Part shown: positions 1 to 7,552 of the stretch, piece after piece
Numbering within the stretch: position 1 is the first letter of the stretch
How the letters are laid out: every line of letters begins with the position of its first letter
Assembly (NCBI GenBank): GCA_937899865.1
Contig: CALBRH010000065.1
Span: 1-64,000 of the forward strand
From: an uncultured euryarchaeote
GTDB taxonomy: Archaea > Thermoplasmatota > Poseidoniia > Poseidoniales > Poseidoniaceae
DNA length: 64,000 nt
Reading direction: 5' to 3'
The notes under the pieces: generated by a model
What the model saw: the letters and a program-made list of their open reading frames with translations, nothing else
What the model was told of the DNA's origin: nothing
Databases searched by the model: none
Made by a program: the position numbers and the translations under genes

Positions 1-67
1 GTCATGATGCTTCGAAATATTATGATTCTAAGTTGTATCAAGGCATTCCCAAAGTTACCGATTTAGG
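1..67 (+). repeat. Direct repeat copy 1 (5' part of the DNA methyltransferase gene); probably continues beyond the window edge
   Basis: Positions 1-55 are identical to 4195-4249. Over 1-67 vs 4195-4261, 64/67 match (mismatches at 56, 59, 63). Confidence 0.95.
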
Positions 68-89: not shown

Positions 90-1541
90 TTAATTTCTGT
101 TAACCAAATATTCGCCAAACGAACCAACAAGAATTCCATCGGGGTCAAATCTAGATTTAAAATTCATTAATTCCGGCCATAGGGTGTCAAAATGATGGCG
201 CCAAAAATCAATATTTTCTGGTAGTGTATCTGGAAGATAACGTACCCCTCCAACATTTAGAACCCGTTTGTAAAGTGATTCATTGTCATCAATCTGCTCG
301 GAAATTCGCTCTTGAGTTGGTGGATCAGCACGTCGTAACAATCCAAGAAAGAAACTTCGCTCATTTTCGGGTAAACGCAGGTATGGGGCGGTAATATATC
401 TCGAATTTAGCGGGAAAAATAAGACTGGCCCACCTCCTATATCGTCAACAGGATGTATTCTATCAAATTCAGATTTCATCAAATCCAATCCATCATCGCT
501 AAATGGAATAAAAACAGTGAGTTCGGGATGTGGCGCTGCTCCTTGAAGTTGCTCTTCAATAATTAATGGTGGTAATCTAAAGCAAAATTCTTTCCAAGAA
601 ATTTCCCATATGTCAATGCACCCAGAAAGATGATTTAATTGTGATAAATCTACTCTTGGTCCTTTGAATCCTGGTCCTTGTAAGTCTGAAATTTCTAAAT
701 TATAGACCCATTCTCCATCTACTTGTTTAATTGCAGACTCAACAACTTCCAAGTCTAGATTCATTTTATCAGTTGAGTTCATTCTAGTCATTACCGATTC
801 AGGAGTTTTTTCTGCGGCAAATCCGTGTATAAGATCAACTTCGTGATTTCTAGATAATCGATTAATATCATCTAATAAATCCACTACCGATCCATAAGCA
901 GCTTGAACCATTCTTACTGATTTAGGTGCAGGTTCGAGTGGTATTTTCGCTTTGGTAATTATTGCAAATTGTCCATGAGTCGCTCTTACAGCATCAAAAA
1001 TGTCAGAATTTGACGTTGGTGAACAGGTTAGTTTTTCTCCAGTACCAGTGACAATTTCCAATTCTATCAAGTGATCCATTTGAGTTCCACGATGAAATGA
1101 CATAAACCCAAATCCACCCATCGAAACAGTACCACCAATTGAAACACTGAGCCAATCAGTTACTACTGGGGGGGTTCGACCTCTTTCTACTGCTGCTTCC
1201 AATACTTTTGACCAAGCAACTCCACCTTCAACAGAAATAAAGTCATCAGTAATTTCACATATCTTATCTAAAGATTTCATGTCGATTACCAAGCCTCCAC
1301 GAACCATCATTTGGCCACCGGCAGAATGTGCATGCCCTCTGGCGGCCAAAGGAATCTTTTCGGCTCTACAGAAATGTACTGCAGCAACAACATCATTTGA
1401 ATTTGCAGGTTTCAATACCGCAAATGGTCTATGCCTACGCACTTTGCCGAAGTCAAGTTCAGCAATATCTAGCCACTTTCCCTCAATTGCAATTTCACCA
1501 TCAAAATTTGGTAATCTATTAACCCACGAATTATCGAGCAA
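90..1541 (-). CDS. FAD-binding oxidoreductase, VAO/PCMH fold, cytokinin dehydrogenase-like
   Basis: ARGHAHS covalent-FAD His motif, VTDWLSVSIGGT, ELEIVTGTGE, GQFAIIT, PHPELTVFIP and C-terminal KSRFDPDGIL parallel CKX-family motifs. Confidence 0.8.
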   Translation of the reverse strand: MLDNSWVNRLPNFDGEIAIEGKWLDIAELDFGKVRRHRPFAVLKPANSNDVVAAVHFCRAEKIPLAARGHAHSAGGQMMVRGGLVIDMKSLDKICEITDDFISVEGGVAWSKVLEAAVERGRTPPVVTDWLSVSIGGTVSMGGFGFMSFHRGTQMDHLIELEIVTGTGEKLTCSPTSNSDIFDAVRATHGQFAIITKAKIPLEPAPKSVRMVQAAYGSVVDLLDDINRLSRNHEVDLIHGFAAEKTPESVMTRMNSTDKMNLDLEVVESAIKQVDGEWVYNLEISDLQGPGFKGPRVDLSQLNHLSGCIDIWEISWKEFCFRLPPLIIEEQLQGAAPHPELTVFIPFSDDGLDLMKSEFDRIHPVDDIGGGPVLFFPLNSRYITAPYLRLPENERSFFLGLLRRADPPTQERISEQIDDNESLYKRVLNVGGVRYLPDTLPENIDFWRHHFDTLWPELMNFKSRFDPDGILVGSFGEYLVNRN

Positions 1542-1559
1542 ATTTAATCCTCCAATATT

Positions 1560-2978
1560 TCATAGTCTAACATTGTGTACTGCTAAAGCTGCACGCAAAG
1601 CAGATTCCATTGCTCCTTCTATCCATCTATGCTGAATAGAAGCATGTTCTCCCGCGAAGTAAAATCTTCCTTCTGGCGAAATGATTGCCTCATGAAGTTC
1701 TCGTTCTTGATGAGGTTGGAAAAAAGCATATGCTCCGGCGGAAAAAGGGTCTTGACTCCAAACTAACGAATGTCCAGATGCGAGATATTTTTCACAATTT
1801 GGATGGATTACTGCGACATTTTCACGAGCTTGTATCAGTCTTTCTTCGGGAGATAGTGCCCCCCATCGCATCGCATCTTGTCCATGACAATAAGAAGCCA
1901 TCAATACACTTCTTTGGCCATGTGGTTTACGTTCAGGATAGTAGATGTTTCTAATTGCTAAGTCCGTTACAGAAGCGCCTCCATGAATTTCATCGGCCTC
2001 CCAAAATCTTTCAGTTGTCTCAAAAAAGACTCTTGCCGCATCCTCATAGTGCAAATTTCGAATTGCTTTTCTTTTACCCCATGAAAACTCACATAAAATT
2101 TCAATATGTCTCAAGATTGAAAATGGTAATGTACAAATTGCAAAATCTCCTTCAATAATCGAACGACCTCCGATATTCTCAACATGAATCTTTACGCCGT
2201 TTTCATCTTGATCTAAAGCATGTACTCTAGTTCCAAAATTTATACATCCTTCTAGTTCGGGAAGAAAAGCCTTGGGCAACCTATCCATGCCACCTTCAAT
2301 AGTCATGGTATTCGCTCTAAGATCTTGAAGAACCTCTCCTAGAAACTCTGCAGCCGAAGCAGATAGAAGGGTCTCAAAACCTGCCACTAATCCATATAAT
2401 TCTATAGCTGCCTCAGACCATCCAGCGTCTTGCATAAATTCTCTAAGTGAAATACTCTGCAACTCTTCACGTATTCCTGCCCATGATTCCGGATTATCAC
2501 TTACCAGTTGACGATATGGGGCAATCAAATTCTCCCACAGATCTTGCAAAGACGATTTTCTTTCACTCTCAGCAAGTGGGAAATCATGAGGAACTTGACC
2601 AGAAACTATGTCTCCTAAGCGAACTCTATGACTATGACTACAGAACCACGCCTTTGGGTTAAACGACTGGAAGGGGCGCATTTCCAAAGAAAAGTGATTT
2701 GCATATGCTTTTACCAACTGATGAGAATTTGGTACCCTCATTGCTCCAGCTTCTGAGTATTGGCCGGGGCTAAATGGTTCGCGTAGTGTTCTTATGCGGC
2801 CCCCAACCCTCTGGCTTGCTTCAATAATTGTCACATTATGTCCTGCAGCCATAAGTTCCCTTGCAGCAACTAGACCGGAAATTCCTGCACCTAAAATAAT
2901 TACATTCTTTGCCGAGAAATCGTTTTTTGGTAAACCTTGCTCGACTATTTCTACTAGCTCTGGTGCAGTATTATCCAT
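1560..2978 (-). CDS. Flavin monoamine oxidase / L-amino acid oxidase family
   Basis: GAGISGL dinucleotide fold, EASQRVGGRI, EAGAMRVP, FAGEHAS and WIEGAMES. Confidence 0.9.
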   Translation of the reverse strand: MDNTAPELVEIVEQGLPKNDFSAKNVIILGAGISGLVAARELMAAGHNVTIIEASQRVGGRIRTLREPFSPGQYSEAGAMRVPNSHQLVKAYANHFSLEMRPFQSFNPKAWFCSHSHRVRLGDIVSGQVPHDFPLAESERKSSLQDLWENLIAPYRQLVSDNPESWAGIREELQSISLREFMQDAGWSEAAIELYGLVAGFETLLSASAAEFLGEVLQDLRANTMTIEGGMDRLPKAFLPELEGCINFGTRVHALDQDENGVKIHVENIGGRSIIEGDFAICTLPFSILRHIEILCEFSWGKRKAIRNLHYEDAARVFFETTERFWEADEIHGGASVTDLAIRNIYYPERKPHGQRSVLMASYCHGQDAMRWGALSPEERLIQARENVAVIHPNCEKYLASGHSLVWSQDPFSAGAYAFFQPHQERELHEAIISPEGRFYFAGEHASIQHRWIEGAMESALRAALAVHNVRL

Positions 2979-2981
2979 GTT

Positions 2982-3974
2982 TTACAACCCCTTGCGTTGA
3001 TGAATTTCTAGATGCCATTGATTGATTATTTCACTATCTGATTCTGATATTTTATCTGGTGCCCCTTCGACTAAAGCCGCCAAAACATTCAGTTCAGTAC
3101 TGATTATTTTATGCAATTTTTCTTTGTCATTATCTGCAACATTGGATAAATCTGTACTTACAATTACTCCATCATGTTCAGTAGAAATATCCATTCTGAT
3201 AGTTTTTTCAAATCCTTCAAAACTCCATGTATAGCAAACACCATCCGGTTCAGATTCAATCTTTAGATCTATATCCCCGTACATTCTTGACTCAACCAAT
3301 TTGCCGTCAATTTTTCTTACCAATTTATGCCCCGTCCATTTTGGAAGCATTGAGGGGTCAGCCATTACCTTCAACACTTTTTCAACGGATTCAGCAATAA
3401 AAACTGAGGGGTTATTGTCATCTGATTCACTGTTAGAATCTTTTAGATAGTCTTGCATTGTATTTGCTAATGCAGACATGTTATCTTCGACAAACTCTCC
3501 AGCATCAATATTCTCGTTTCTTTCAATTAACTCAACAAAATATCCACAGTACTTCTTGGCGAGAAAAATTTGCTTTAACCCAGAAACAGGGTCTTGAAGA
3601 ATCTCTTCAGAGGTAGTTTCTACCCCATGCTCTCGTAATTTTTCTAAGGTGTCATCAATATTTTCTACTGTATATGCAACATGGTGGACACCTGGGCCAA
3701 ACCTCCACCAATAGCGATGAAATATTGAATCCTCTGTTAATCCTTCAGTTACTACCATTACCTTTTCATCCGAACCAGGTAACCATAGAATATGATTTAG
3801 CATATCATATTCTCCTTCAGGAACTGAACCAGCATTAACCATTTGAACTCTAGCTGGGCGAAAACCTAACACATTTACGTGAAATTCTGCAACAGCACGT
3901 GCATCATCGACAATTAGCGTATAGTGGTCAAATTCCCCGAGTTCAATAGGTGAATTCTGCATTGATAAAGCCAT
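2982..3974 (-). CDS. VOC-family metalloenzyme (HPPD C-terminal-domain-like) fused to an SRPBCC/START-like domain
   Basis: FDHYTL, GPGVHHVAY, LKQIF and FVELIER give a His/His/Glu triad. The C-terminal VFIAESVEKVLKVMADPSMLPKW is SRPBCC-like. Confidence 0.7.
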   Translation of the reverse strand: MALSMQNSPIELGEFDHYTLIVDDARAVAEFHVNVLGFRPARVQMVNAGSVPEGEYDMLNHILWLPGSDEKVMVVTEGLTEDSIFHRYWWRFGPGVHHVAYTVENIDDTLEKLREHGVETTSEEILQDPVSGLKQIFLAKKYCGYFVELIERNENIDAGEFVEDNMSALANTMQDYLKDSNSESDDNNPSVFIAESVEKVLKVMADPSMLPKWTGHKLVRKIDGKLVESRMYGDIDLKIESEPDGVCYTWSFEGFEKTIRMDISTEHDGVIVSTDLSNVADNDKEKLHKIISTELNVLAALVEGAPDKISESDSEIINQWHLEIHQRKGL

Positions 3975-4121
3975 TAAATGTGCATTATTTAATCTACCTA
4001 ACAGATTTAATGTCAGACTTTTTGTAAATCTCTACCGTGCCACAATATACAATAAAAAATATGGGCAAAGGCATGTAATAATGCCGATTGAATTATTAAG
4101 CCGCGCGTCAAAGATGATGAT

Positions 4122-5027
4122 ATGACCGTAGGCAGAGGTTCTAACAAAAAGACCTCTACTACAACCTCAAGTTTCGGCGTCTCCAAGCGTGAGAGTCATG
4201 ATGCTTCGAAATATTATGATTCTAAGTTGTATCAAGGCATTCCCAAAGTCACTGATGTAGGCGATCCACAAGAGTTTCCAGAATTCCTGCGAGATAGCCT
4301 AGTGTGTGGTGATTCACGTGATATGAGTATGATTCCACCCAATAGTGTCCAACTAATGGTCACCTCACCACCGTACAATGTTAGCAAGGAATACGATGAG
4401 GATTTGAGTCTGCAAGAATACTTAGCCATGCTCAAAGACGTCTTTACTGAAACTTATCGCGTCTTAGCCCCGGGTGGGCGAGCAGTAATCAATGTCGCTA
4501 ATGTTGGCCGTAAGCCATACATTCCACTAACCAGTTACATCAACATGATAATGCTCGAAATTGGCTTTTTGATGCGTGGAGAAATAATCTGGGATAAGTC
4601 CGCATCTGCAGGTACAAGTTGTGCTTGGGGCTCATTCAAGTCAGCCTCGAATCCGTGCCTTAGAGATGTGCATGAATACATCCTGGTCTACTGTAAAGGT
4701 GATTTCAAACTCGAGCGCACTAAGCAAGAGCGAGCTGAAGGTCGTGAGGATACTATCGAGAAGCAGGAATTCATTGACTTCACCAAATCCATTTGGCGTT
4801 TCCCTACTGCATCGGCTAAGCGTATCGGTCATCCTGCACCGTTCCCTGAGGAATTACCACGGCGCTGTATCGAGTTTTACACCTTCAAAGGCGATGTCGT
4901 GCTTGACCCATTCATGGGTTCGGGTTCAACCGCACTGGCTGCTAAACATACTGGACGTTCCTACATTGGCTACGATATCAGTCAGGAATATGTTGACTTA
5001 GCCAATCAGCGATTAGCCGATGATTAG
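4122..5027 (+). CDS. Orphan amino-DNA methyltransferase, beta class (N4-C/N6-A)
   Basis: VTSPPYN catalytic motif precedes GHPAPFPEELPRR and the VLDPFMGSGST SAM-binding motif. Confidence 0.92.
   Translation: MTVGRGSNKKTSTTTSSFGVSKRESHDASKYYDSKLYQGIPKVTDVGDPQEFPEFLRDSLVCGDSRDMSMIPPNSVQLMVTSPPYNVSKEYDEDLSLQEYLAMLKDVFTETYRVLAPGGRAVINVANVGRKPYIPLTSYINMIMLEIGFLMRGEIIWDKSASAGTSCAWGSFKSASNPCLRDVHEYILVYCKGDFKLERTKQERAEGREDTIEKQEFIDFTKSIWRFPTASAKRIGHPAPFPEELPRRCIEFYTFKGDVVLDPFMGSGSTALAAKHTGRSYIGYDISQEYVDLANQRLADD
4195..4261 (+). repeat. Direct repeat copy 2, inside the intact methyltransferase gene
   Basis: Matches 1-67 as described for copy 1. Confidence 0.95.
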
Positions 5028-7552
5028 TCATCTAGCAATTCTGCTTCAACTATGCTAGTATCTTTTTCGACCAGCTCAATACCTTCACGACGCATGCTAA
5101 TCTGATAACCAATACCACCAGCAATTAGCATGAATAGAATGATCATTGAGGACATAGCAAAACCATATTGAGAGAAGATTTCACCCAATGCGGAGAAGAA
5201 TCCGTCAGGACCATCATCCTCTTCCATGACCTTTGGTTTGATTAGTTCAACAACCGCTTGTTGGTCGTAAACATTTCTTGTGAAAGTTAGCATGCCATCC
5301 ATAGAAGCATCATAGTTTTCTGATGGAGTTGCTGGGTCTAAGTCAGAATAGTAATCCGGCTTTTGCTCGAAGGCAATATCAATTGGTTCGCTTACATCAA
5401 GAGTAAGAATCACATCAACAGTGTATGGAATTCTTGATTCAAAGAACTCAGGGTCTTCGATGAAACCGAATAGCGTCATTGCTTGACCAGTGACATCGAA
5501 GTGAGCCCACTGACCCCATGCAGATGAATCAACATCCAAGTCATAATACCATGAATCAGCAACTCTGCTACCTTGTCCTTGCGCATCATTACTGCCATCC
5601 TCAGCGAGGTCAATCTCTAATTGCACAGAACCAACTTGACCAGAATCAAGTTCGAATTCAGTAGCAGTAAACATAGCCTCGAGTCTTTCAGTTCCGTTAG
5701 GAATCCAGACATAGTGTGAATCTTCGGTATAGTAAACAGCACCGGTTGCGCCGTTATTGAAGTGGTTCCAGTCACCTTTCCAAGAGTGTCTTACTCTATC
5801 GGTGTCAAGCGAGATGGTTTTGTTAGCCATCATATTTTCATAAATTTCCCAAGCATCCCAAACCGTATACTCCGGGTGGTCAACAATACCGTTACCATCT
5901 TGGTCACGCATTAATTGTAGAGTTCTAGCAAGAGCCACAGCAGCATCGGTATCGGTAAGTCCATGACCGACTCGCCAATCGTGACACTGTCCAGTTGCGC
6001 TCAAGTAGCATTGTTCTGGAATATCATTACAGGAATCATCGCTATTACCATCTTCACAGGAGTTAGCCATGCCCTCATAGACCGCAGTTAGCTCAAGAAT
6101 CAATTCTAATTCGTGAATTCTGCTGAAGTTCTCAGTAGCCCAGTTTTCGAACTGACCGTAGGCTGCAGTGCCTTCACCACCAACCAAACTGTCACCGAAG
6201 TCATGGTCTTCACGGTGGTAATCAGCAACTCCCAATGACGGTGCAATGTCGAGAATCAATCCAGCCATACCGCCAACGTGCGGGGTTGCCATAGAGGTTC
6301 CAGAAATAGACATGTAATACAAATCACCTTGAGTTTTGGTAGTTGCATCAATGGCAGTACCTCTTGGAGCGGTAGCCCAGATATCTCTGCCAGGTGCACC
6401 AACATCTGGCCAAGTGTGTTGTTGGTTCATGCAGCCTCTTGAAGAAAATGAAGTAATTGCTGAACCATCATGAGTTAGTGCGGCAACAGAAATCGCTGAA
6501 GGAGTATTAGCATATACATTGGTTTTCAGTCCACCAGAACATTCTCCACCATTGCCACCGGAGTTTGAGGCAGCAAAGATTACTGCAACGCCATTTTCAA
6601 AGGTCAGCCGGTCGGTTATTTGGGCAATCACACCATTTGGATCGTAGTCACCATCGGTACCCCAGGAGTTAGATACAACTCTAATGTGATACGGGTTTTG
6701 ACCAGGTATTGAATGGATAAATGTCCATTCTAAGCCTTGTTCAGCAGCGAAAATTGAGGCGCCATCACCGGTTCCAAGCGCAACCATTTGACCGCCTTTG
6801 GCAACACCTGCTCGACGACCAGCACTAGCATCACCATTGCCAGCAATAGTGCCGCCAACGTGCGTTCCGTGGCCTGATGTAGTGTCAGAATTTCGTGTTT
6901 CAGTCCACACTCCATCCCACTTTGCTGAGTAAATTACTTTGTCACCAGTCCATGGTTCAAGGTAGTCGAAATCAGGATGACCAGCATCGACACCAGTATC
7001 CAAATCAACGATTGCGGTACCGTCACCATCCCATTCAGTAAATGCCAAATCAACATCGTATTGGACTACTCCTTCAGGTGAAACAATGACTCTGTCCCAG
7101 GCATCAGTAGCTTTCACAACGTGGGTTGTTTCATGCATCATAGCGCTTGGGTCGGTAGGGTCACCGCCCCATTCAGGTGGTAAGTAAAAGAAATCAAGTT
7201 CCTTGTCAAGTTCGAGGTATTCGATTCTATCCCAATTTGAGATTCGACGAACATCTTCTGCCTTGGCTTCGATTAGACCGCCATCTACTAATGGTGCATC
7301 ACCAAGTATGGTGGCACCAAATTCCTCGAGTTGGTTTAGGTCGGAATCGGTTACTGGAGAGTTTAGTTGGAAGATTACAGGAAGCACTGTATCAAATGAC
7401 GAGTCATACAATTCCTGTTGCAAGTCATGATTCATTTTCTCATAGTTACCCATTGGATTAACTTGGTCTGCAAGTGGTGCTGCAGTTGCACCAACCATCA
7501 ACAATTGCAACAATAGTGAAACAAAAATCACAACATTCCTATTGTCACCCAT
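5024..7552 (-). CDS. Membrane-anchored subtilisin-like serine protease (S8)
   Basis: Signal peptide, triad DLDTGVD / GHGTHVGG / GTSMATPHVGG, oxyanion AASNS and a C-terminal TM helix. Confidence 0.92.
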   Translation of the reverse strand: MGDNRNVVIFVSLLLQLLMVGATAAPLADQVNPMGNYEKMNHDLQQELYDSSFDTVLPVIFQLNSPVTDSDLNQLEEFGATILGDAPLVDGGLIEAKAEDVRRISNWDRIEYLELDKELDFFYLPPEWGGDPTDPSAMMHETTHVVKATDAWDRVIVSPEGVVQYDVDLAFTEWDGDGTAIVDLDTGVDAGHPDFDYLEPWTGDKVIYSAKWDGVWTETRNSDTTSGHGTHVGGTIAGNGDASAGRRAGVAKGGQMVALGTGDGASIFAAEQGLEWTFIHSIPGQNPYHIRVVSNSWGTDGDYDPNGVIAQITDRLTFENGVAVIFAASNSGGNGGECSGGLKTNVYANTPSAISVAALTHDGSAITSFSSRGCMNQQHTWPDVGAPGRDIWATAPRGTAIDATTKTQGDLYYMSISGTSMATPHVGGMAGLILDIAPSLGVADYHREDHDFGDSLVGGEGTAAYGQFENWATENFSRIHELELILELTAVYEGMANSCEDGNSDDSCNDIPEQCYLSATGQCHDWRVGHGLTDTDAAVALARTLQLMRDQDGNGIVDHPEYTVWDAWEIYENMMANKTISLDTDRVRHSWKGDWNHFNNGATGAVYYTEDSHYVWIPNGTERLEAMFTATEFELDSGQVGSVQLEIDLAEDGSNDAQGQGSRVADSWYYDLDVDSSAWGQWAHFDVTGQAMTLFGFIEDPEFFESRIPYTVDVILTLDVSEPIDIAFEQKPDYYSDLDPATPSENYDASMDGMLTFTRNVYDQQAVVELIKPKVMEEDDGPDGFFSALGEIFSQYGFAMSSMIILFMLIAGGIGYQISMRREGIELVEKDTSIVEAELLDD

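Follow-up and report, generated by a model that had tools for sequence, protein, structure and literature searches.

The 64,000-nucleotide stretch analysed here (the window) forms the start of a 95.6-kb contig (CALBRH010000065.1; C65) from a 2.0-Mb, 91% complete genome of an uncultured euryarchaeote of the order Poseidoniales. At its left end lies a cassette of three genes, all on the minus strand, which encode a protein with a VOC domain fused to an SRPBCC domain, a flavoprotein of the L-amino-acid oxidase (LAAO) type and a flavoprotein of the cytokinin oxidase/dehydrogenase (CKX) family. The interpretation that we favour, with moderate confidence, is that these genes form one horizontally mobile operon encoding a self-contained oxidative pathway that starts from an L-amino acid. 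The features of the cassette are as follows:

2982..3974, minus strand: gene 1, VOC plus SRPBCC protein, 330 aa (assigned from Pfam, predicted fold and motifs)
about 3438-3947, minus strand: VOC domain of gene 1, aa ~10-179, of the HPPD/hydroxymandelate-synthase catalytic-domain type
about 2985-3422, minus strand: SRPBCC helix-grip domain of gene 1, aa ~185-330 (predicted fold)
1560..2978, minus strand: gene 2, FAD-dependent flavoprotein of the LAAO type, 472 aa (assigned from Pfam and alignments)
1549..1553, minus strand: GGAGG, resembling a ribosome-binding site, in the 18-nt spacer ahead of gene 3
90..1541, minus strand: gene 3, VAO/PCMH flavoprotein of the CKX family, 483 aa, with a TTG start

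The spacers between the genes measure 3 nt (2979-2981; the junction of genes 1 and 2 reads TAA-aac-ATG) and 18 nt (1542-1559), with the Shine-Dalgarno-like GGAGG placed 7 nt upstream of the TTG of gene 3. These open reading frame (ORF) coordinates agree with the original prediction, made from the letters of the window, of three co-oriented genes with gaps of 3 and 18 nt. Given these gaps and the Shine-Dalgarno-like site, the genes most likely constitute one operon, for which a single transcript is predicted. No signal sequence could be read at the N-terminus of any of the three proteins, and the pathway would therefore be cytoplasmic.

In order to follow the module into other organisms, 122 homologues of gene 1 (E<=1e-3) were traced to contigs and species-representative genomes, and the three window proteins were matched against the ORFs of 34 loci, 31 of them distinct. 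A CKX-like gene adjoins the VOC gene in 28 of the 31 distinct loci; the three exceptions are one VOC gene at a contig end and two loci that encode only a short VOC protein. This adjacency in other organisms places the gene arrangement far beyond chance. The original prediction would have been refuted had the trio never co-occurred elsewhere; it is in fact conserved in both bacteria and archaea. An amino-acid-converting gene is present in 25 of the 28 loci that combine CKX and VOC genes, and this third gene is of two types: an LAAO in 11 loci (fusions included) and a HisC-like pyridoxal phosphate (PLP) aminotransferase in 15 loci, the replacement enzymes being Aminotran_1_2 proteins of the HisC-like group.

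The order of the genes also varies between lineages. The layout VOC, LAAO, CKX is seen in marine 'Deltaproteobacteria' contigs and a second Poseidoniales contig as well as in the window, and in six distinct loci from Myxococcota/Polyangia metagenome-assembled genomes (MAGs) the VOC gene is followed by a small ORF and an LAAO-CKX fusion (ORF of ~955 aa). The order CKX, VOC, aminotransferase is found in Flavobacteriales and related MAGs, and VOC, a 157-aa ORF, CKX, aminotransferase in Flavobacterium spp. and a Limnohabitans MAG. One locus (L021:111-2852) has an LAAO with C-terminal ankyrin repeats (914-aa ORF) ahead of VOC and CKX genes, and in one case (L020, P0140) CKX and VOC form a single protein of 826 aa. 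The strongest evidence that the three proteins share a pathway, and that one of its steps converts an amino acid to a 2-oxo acid, is the non-orthologous displacement of LAAO by transaminase combined with both types of gene fusion.

Clustering of the ORFs of the 34 loci for further conserved neighbours such as transporters or regulators returned only the aminotransferase and lineage-specific small ORFs; the other recurrent clusters examined at these loci are antisense shadow ORFs. The small ORFs lie between the VOC and CKX genes and encode a TerB-like protein of 122 aa in Myxococcota and, in Flavobacterium, a protein of 157 aa that has no Pfam match. They have no counterpart in the window:

L011:9003-9371 and L012:8941-9414: lineage-specific small ORFs between VOC and CKX genes

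Two taxon labels call for caution. A CKX, VOC, aminotransferase locus from a MAG labelled Nitrosopumilus sp. (L029) groups with Flavobacteriales in the CKX tree described below (support of 96 with L022), and the contig is probably mis-binned; the label of the L020 contig (Enterobacteriaceae) looks doubtful.

In the pathway that we propose, the LAAO-type flavoprotein would convert an L-amino acid to the 2-oxo acid with release of NH3 and H2O2, a step that the HisC-like aminotransferase would perform in other lineages. The VOC domain would then use Fe(II) and O2 for the oxidative decarboxylation of the 2-oxo acid and hydroxylation of the product, and the fused SRPBCC domain would offer a hydrophobic, probably aromatic, side chain either a binding pocket or another active site. 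Finally, the CKX-family enzyme, with its covalent FAD and Asp-centred site, would dehydrogenate the newly formed C-OH bond, or a C-N bond, of this product, and the outcome may be a compound of the aryl-glyoxylate type. The cassette most likely converts an amino acid via a keto acid to an oxidised small molecule. The three steps differ in their footing: the first is well supported as a prediction by homology and by the transaminase displacement, the second is supported by predicted fold and motifs, and the third we infer from chemistry, as an Asp-centred covalent-FAD site can abstract a hydride beside O-H as it does beside N-H. The original prediction had drawn a route from amino acid to keto acid, hydroxy acid and oxidised product; it is supported in part. 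Its first conversion fits the LAAO and the exchange of this enzyme for an aminotransferase, and the type of its VOC enzyme is retained, whereas the hydroxy acid, its oxidation by the CKX-family enzyme, an aromatic substrate and a tie to algal auxin or cytokinin are possibilities.

Protein 2 matches Pfam Amino_oxidase over its full length (250.9 bits, E 4e-74). Its residues 5-470 align end to end with structures of vertebrate-type LAAOs, including those of the snake-venom group (E 1e-78, identity in the 38% range), and an end-to-end alignment was likewise obtained with the L-glutamate oxidase of Streptomyces (E 1e-63). The GAMRVP and NIYYP stretches of protein 2 align with GAMRIP and FIYYP of LAAO, and would contain the Arg and Tyr responsible for binding the alpha-carboxylate of the substrate, as in the LAAO of C. 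rhodostoma. Since the LAAO alignment extends from end to end and the carboxylate-binding motifs are kept, protein 2 is indicated to be of the alpha-amino-acid oxidase type and not a generic amine oxidase, which sharpens its earlier designation as an amine oxidase. It differs from the known enzymes in having no signal peptide and in carrying Arg for Gly before the conserved Trp, and some of the bacterial cassette LAAOs differ further in being fused to a CKX-like enzyme or to ankyrin repeats.

Protein 3 exceeds the Pfam cut-offs for both FAD_binding_4 (97 bits against 26.4) and Cytokin-bind (60.3 bits against 23), and full-length alignments connect it, at ~30% identity, with the CKX of plants (E 7e-57 to 1e-41) and of Rhodococcus fascians. 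It keeps His72 (AHS; GHS in CKX, the site of covalent FAD attachment), Asp129 (TDW; TDYL in CKX, with Trp in place of Tyr170) and Tyr435 (YLP), all three invariant among 23 members of the CKX-like clade, and the HF of the HFG motif is also conserved across the cassette clade. However, the cytokinin-pocket motif PHPWLN reads PHPEL(T) in protein 3. The Glu of the plant DYVEGF stretch, which from the numbering we estimate to be Glu288 of the Asp169-Glu288 pair, aligns with a His. In CKX the Asp-Glu pair polarises the substrate amine (PMC9340367). A cytokinin pocket defined by PHPWLN together with this pair is not found in protein 3. The residues that protein 3 does keep are those missing from the inactive Nostoc homologue (NoCKX1 of PCC 7120), a prokaryotic CKX-family protein with no demonstrated role towards cytokinins, in which both the flavinylation His and the Asp of the active site are missing and FAD is not bound (PMC4574047).

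In a tree built from 42 proteins of the CKX family (quick search with SH-aLRT values, no bootstrap, plant outgroup), the cassette sequences fell into a clade of their own (34 rows, SH-aLRT 99), separate from rhizobial and plant CKX. Unlike the plant and R. fascians enzymes, the cassette protein would be cytoplasmic and is coupled to a VOC-SRPBCC protein and an amino-acid-deaminating enzyme. The earlier description of gene 3 as a VAO-type oxidase stands as far as the VAO/PCMH fold is concerned and can be narrowed to the CKX family, with an altered cytokinin-pocket motif. Simple cytokinin degradation was ranked low in view of the obligatory partner genes and the changed pocket motif.

Turning to protein 1, Pfam detected Glyoxalase/Glyoxalase_4 at residues 15-125, and the AlphaFold2 model has two domains (mean pLDDT 86). 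Structural comparison of the VOC domain with VIA-align gave the C-terminal, catalytic domain of hydroxymandelate synthase (HMS; 2r5v_B, residues 154-348) as best match, with Z 16.5, a root-mean-square deviation of 2.7 over 161 residues and 25% identity. A profile of the gene 1 family built from 19 members likewise had its best matches in R-hydroxymandelate synthase and HPPDs (E 6e-14 to 2e-12, against 1e-10 for epimerases), and its alignment contains the signature of the HPPD/HMS catalytic domain: DH(Y/F), G-V-(Q/H)-H-(I/V)-A, L-x-Q-I-F, F-(L/I)-E-L-I-E-R and F...N-(I/M)..L. This final motif sits on a C-terminal helix missing from epimerase chains. These motifs align with residues 174-285 and 316-359 of 7yvv. 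Seven residues are invariant in the family (His17, His98, Glu148, Gln135, Arg152, Phe161 and Asn165), and the VOC domain combines a 2-His-1-Glu site, with His17, His98 and Glu148 as putative metal ligands, with the catalytic-domain signature including the C-terminal helix; it occurs once in protein 1, where HPPD and HMS have two tandem VOC domains (~350 aa). From the family profile and the predicted fold we consider it, with moderate confidence, a stand-alone HMS/HPPD-like catalytic domain, in keeping with the HPPD/hydroxymandelate-synthase type originally proposed.

In the second half of the protein, residues 185-308 adopt a helix-grip fold in the predicted model (pLDDT >90). VIA-align of this region gave Z 13.7 to 2qpv and Z 8.5-11 to about 25 SRPBCC chains (START/Aha1/aromatase-cyclase/PYL). 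Pfam returned no family match for the C-terminal half of the window protein; its homologues match Polyketide_cyc2/AHSA1, one of them above the cut-off (30.1 bits against 27.4). The SRPBCC label given from the sequence is backed by the predicted fold and by the Pfam matches in homologues. Fusions of Glyoxalase with SRPBCC (Polyketide_cyc2 or AHSA1) were also seen in several other large uncharacterised bacterial/archaeal ESM Atlas clusters, which indicates that the pairing recurs beyond the cassette family. Complex prediction for the CKX-like protein with the VOC-SRPBCC protein scored 0.00 and is evidence neither way.

Several observations weigh against the proposed pathway. For protein 1, the single-sequence match to the HPPD model TIGR01263 covers the N-terminal, non-catalytic half of that model and scores 31.9 bits where the cut-off is 277; methylmalonyl-CoA epimerases follow closely in the fold comparisons of the VOC domain; an invariant Glu77 occupies the position of the fourth metal ligand of glyoxalase I and the epimerases, where it would favour proton transfer over O2 chemistry (the conserved Glu of the HPPD NEP motif aligns with this same residue); and the aromatics of the C-terminal lid helix of HPPD (GNF, LF) are Met and Ala in protein 1. 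As these two lid-helix aromatics are not conserved, an aromatic substrate is not assured. For protein 3, the known CKX enzymes act on secondary amines and not on hydroxy acids, and the invariant Glu340 that replaces the Trp of PHPWLN fits an anionic substrate poorly. Lastly, no downstream pathway was found in the genome, in which homogentisate dioxygenase and canonical HPPD were sought.

In an alternative order of events the CKX-like enzyme would act first and, as CKX does, oxidatively split a secondary amine; the LAAO or aminotransferase would deaminate the freed amino acid, and the VOC-SRPBCC protein would take the aldehyde or keto-acid fragment. The amine could be an amino acid that is N-substituted, opine-like or carries an N-prenyl or N-alkyl group, or else an N6-substituted adenine, cytokinins being one example. 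The covalent-FAD His, the Asp and the Tyr that define the amine chemistry of CKX are all kept, Glu340 would suit a cationic amine, and the LAAO-CKX fusion fits two amine-oxidising steps on one molecule. However, the motif that contacts cytokinin is altered, His stands where plant CKX has the Glu of DYVEGF, the strict coupling to an HPPD/HMS-like protein has no role in known cytokinin degradation, and none of the loci examined contains IPT/LOG-type genes. We regard C-N cleavage as the first step as unlikely, while giving it some weight.

Slightly less probable still is that the VOC domain is no oxygenase but a metal-dependent epimerase, tautomerase or isomerase, similar to methylmalonyl-CoA epimerase or glyoxalase I. 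Its substrate, formed in the first step, would be the 2-oxo acid, the corresponding enol or a cyclic imine, with the CKX-like enzyme dehydrogenating the isomer, for example by aromatising a cyclic imine derived from a basic amino acid. In a Foldseek search of the PDB with the whole protein 1 model, in which matches were confined to the VOC domain (the SRPBCC half being covered by VIA-align instead), methylmalonyl-CoA epimerases ranked top (E 5e-11, TM 0.76-0.78), and the best NCBIfam match of protein 1 is an epimerase model. The metal-ligand pattern of glyoxalase I is H-E-H-E, and the conserved H17-E77-H98-E148 of protein 1 matches it. On the other hand, VIA-align gives hydroxymandelate synthase, matched through its catalytic domain, a clear lead (Z 16.5, with 13.6-14.1 for the epimerases), the family profile prefers HMS/HPPD, and the ELIER...F..N-M..L signature of the C-terminal helix is specific to HPPD/HMS and lies past the end of epimerase chains.

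Returning to the oxidative pathway from an L-amino acid, the nature of its substrate is hinted at by the HisC-like transaminases and the hydrophobic SRPBCC pocket, which suggest an aromatic or otherwise bulky side chain. Neither homogentisate dioxygenase (HgmA) nor canonical HPPD (TIGR01263 above cut-off) was found in this 91%-complete genome, so that the product would lie outside the standard tyrosine route; standard tyrosine catabolism was dropped as an explanation on the same grounds. More speculatively, marine bacteria and Marine Group II archaea could be exchanging the cassette as a portable device for making or breaking small molecules. The CKX-family enzyme would then attack a C-N bond, with the conserved polar SRPBCC pocket (WTGH, E228, R230, D234) as a second catalytic site. 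Between them they would produce from an aromatic amino acid, or would destroy, an alkaloid-like compound or diffusible signal (of auxin, cytokinin or carboline type) of importance in phytoplankton-microbe interactions; we consider this doubtful.

The proposed scheme parallels two known systems that employ different protein families, an analogy that concerns the order of reactions. HmaS-Hmo-HpgT is the route to L-p-hydroxyphenylglycine in the clusters for glycopeptide and CDA antibiotics, and it combines three enzymes, of which one shuttles between the amino acid and the 2-oxo acid, one is an Fe(II)/O2-dependent oxidative decarboxylase of the HPPD family and one is a flavin oxidase for the hydroxy acid; HmaS itself (2r5v) is the best structural match of the cassette VOC domain. 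However, HmaS carries a pair of VOC domains and lacks an SRPBCC domain where the cassette protein has one of each, Hmo is an FMN-dependent alpha-hydroxyacid oxidase where the cassette has a CKX-type covalent-FAD enzyme, and the cassette here has an LAAO in place of the aminotransferase and no peptide-synthetase context. The second parallel is found in the lysine catabolism of bacteria and plants, which uses HglS (DUF1338, VOC fold) and D-2-hydroxyglutarate dehydrogenase. HglS is an Fe(II)/O2 enzyme that turns a 2-oxo acid into the one-carbon-shorter 2-hydroxy acid, which is then oxidised by a VAO/PCMH FAD enzyme, and the rice enzyme 6w1k is among the fold matches of protein 1 (Z 11.0). It differs in that it belongs to another VOC subfamily, its dehydrogenase has a FAD-oxidase_C cap in place of the Cytokin-bind cap, and the genes form no fixed cassette.

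The first of these parallels raises the possibility that the cassette is an HmaS-Hmo-HpgT analogue whose end product is a non-proteinogenic, hydroxyphenylglycine-like aryl-glycine. The three-step logic would be the same, and the aminotransferase found as partner in 15 loci could both start and finish such a cycle. Nevertheless, the version in the window has an irreversible oxidase, which cannot itself make the final amino acid, and no non-ribosomal peptide synthetase or other consumer was found near any locus examined, and we judge aryl-glycine biosynthesis to be improbable.

The surroundings of the cassette bear on its origin. Upstream of the trio lies a divergent gene for an N6/N4 DNA methylase (4122-5027), followed by genes for a subtilase and an Lrp/AsnC regulator, and the junctions of the cassette are marked by the following features:

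1..67, plus strand: left direct-repeat copy, a shortened 5' remnant of the methylase gene that covers codons 26-47 and then meets a stop
3975..4121, no strand: intergenic region separating gene 1 from the divergent methylase gene; from ~4084 on it is homologous to the empty sites of relatives
4195..4261, plus strand: right direct-repeat copy, inside the intact methylase gene 4122-5027

The two repeat copies are identical at 64 of 67 positions. The contig begins inside the left copy, and the repeat probably extends further left than the contig start. A 5.4-kb NCBI contig that is 88.6% identical to the window (L082) reaches past this point, and here the repeat is 184 nt long (5062-5245), matching window positions 4078-4261 and hence the upstream region and first 47 codons of the methylase gene. 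Because the repeat in L082 corresponds to the methylase 5' region, the cassette can be described as an insertion of ~4.0 kb that has the intact methylase gene at one flank and a truncated 5' piece of it at the other. Three congeners have the empty site, with the methylase gene directly preceded by a small ORF, which by eye we take to be CutA1, and an ORF of ~890 aa; the corresponding genes in a 720-kb contig of a relative (L081, ~80% identity) have Pfam matches to CutA1 and PDH_E1_M/Transketolase_C_1. In L081 the trio occupies the same site, and in another Poseidoniales lineage a second insertion site was found, with the trio after SRP54.

That the cassette is an artefact of a chimeric contig end, or decaying cargo without function, appears very improbable: it does lie at the very start of a contig that opens inside a repeat, and the LAAO gene of L081 is in two pieces (232 and 248 aa), but the same cassette is at the same site in two independent assemblies (L081 and L082; 80-89% DNA identity), all three ORFs of the window are intact and their catalytic residues are conserved.

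The CKX-like gene was not found in 24 genomes of the same genus and 16 of the same order, nor the VOC gene in a further 300 genomes from 26 genera of the order; the nearest copies are assigned to Thermoplasmatota/Poseidoniales by database names and by the ESM Atlas cluster. In the CKX tree, seven sequences of the archaeal type form one clade (SH-aLRT 100) nested inside the bacterial cassette sequences, and this clade adjoins marine 'Deltaproteobacteria' contigs (71-73% identity). The simplest reading of these sequence relationships is a single transfer from a bacterium to an archaeon followed by spread within Marine Group II, and the donor of the archaeal cassette would have been a marine bacterium resembling Myxococcota. 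Horizontal acquisition of the trio is a point that the original prediction did not include.

CKX enzymes are, to our knowledge, recognised almost only as degraders of plant hormones. A survey of CKX genes from 2020 reported them from land plants, one excavate and <2.5% of bacterial genomes, and from no archaea, Bacteroidota or Planctomycetota (PMC7049301). The clade described here, whose members are found in company with an amino-acid-deaminating enzyme and a protein of HPPD/HMS-like-SRPBCC make-up, is distinct and occurs in Myxococcota, Bacteroidota, Planctomycetota and other bacteria, and the CKX family thereby gains a likely function outside cytokinin metabolism. Our literature search on the module (CKX, VOC, SRPBCC, LAAO, aminotransferase, Marine Group II) yielded no paper describing it: the individual families and the pathway logic are already known, but the combination is not described. 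Its elements are the fusion of a single-domain HMS-like protein with SRPBCC, the CKX-type third enzyme, the interchange of LAAO and transaminase and the movement of the cassette into archaea. Marine Group II archaea are abundant heterotrophs of the surface ocean, and the transfer of the 4-kb unit to them would provide a clean example of a metabolic cassette passing between domains. As a compact, uncharacterised pathway of three soluble enzymes it is directly testable, with versions available in cultured hosts, among them Flavobacterium amniphilum and Hyalangium rubrum.

Two further observations concern the insertion site. In L081 the CKX-like gene is directly followed by a resolvase gene (serine recombinase, L081:11527-12243), and the island continues to ~20800 with ~9 kb of small ORFs and fragments of Z1/DUF4420 and DNA_methylase up to CutA1. 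Contigs of the same genus (G012:C22, G021:C64, G046:C41 and G041:C18) end within the match to the methylase-subtilase query, G012:C22 inside the methylase gene near the repeat, and these breaks may mark a region that is variable or hard to assemble in the genus.

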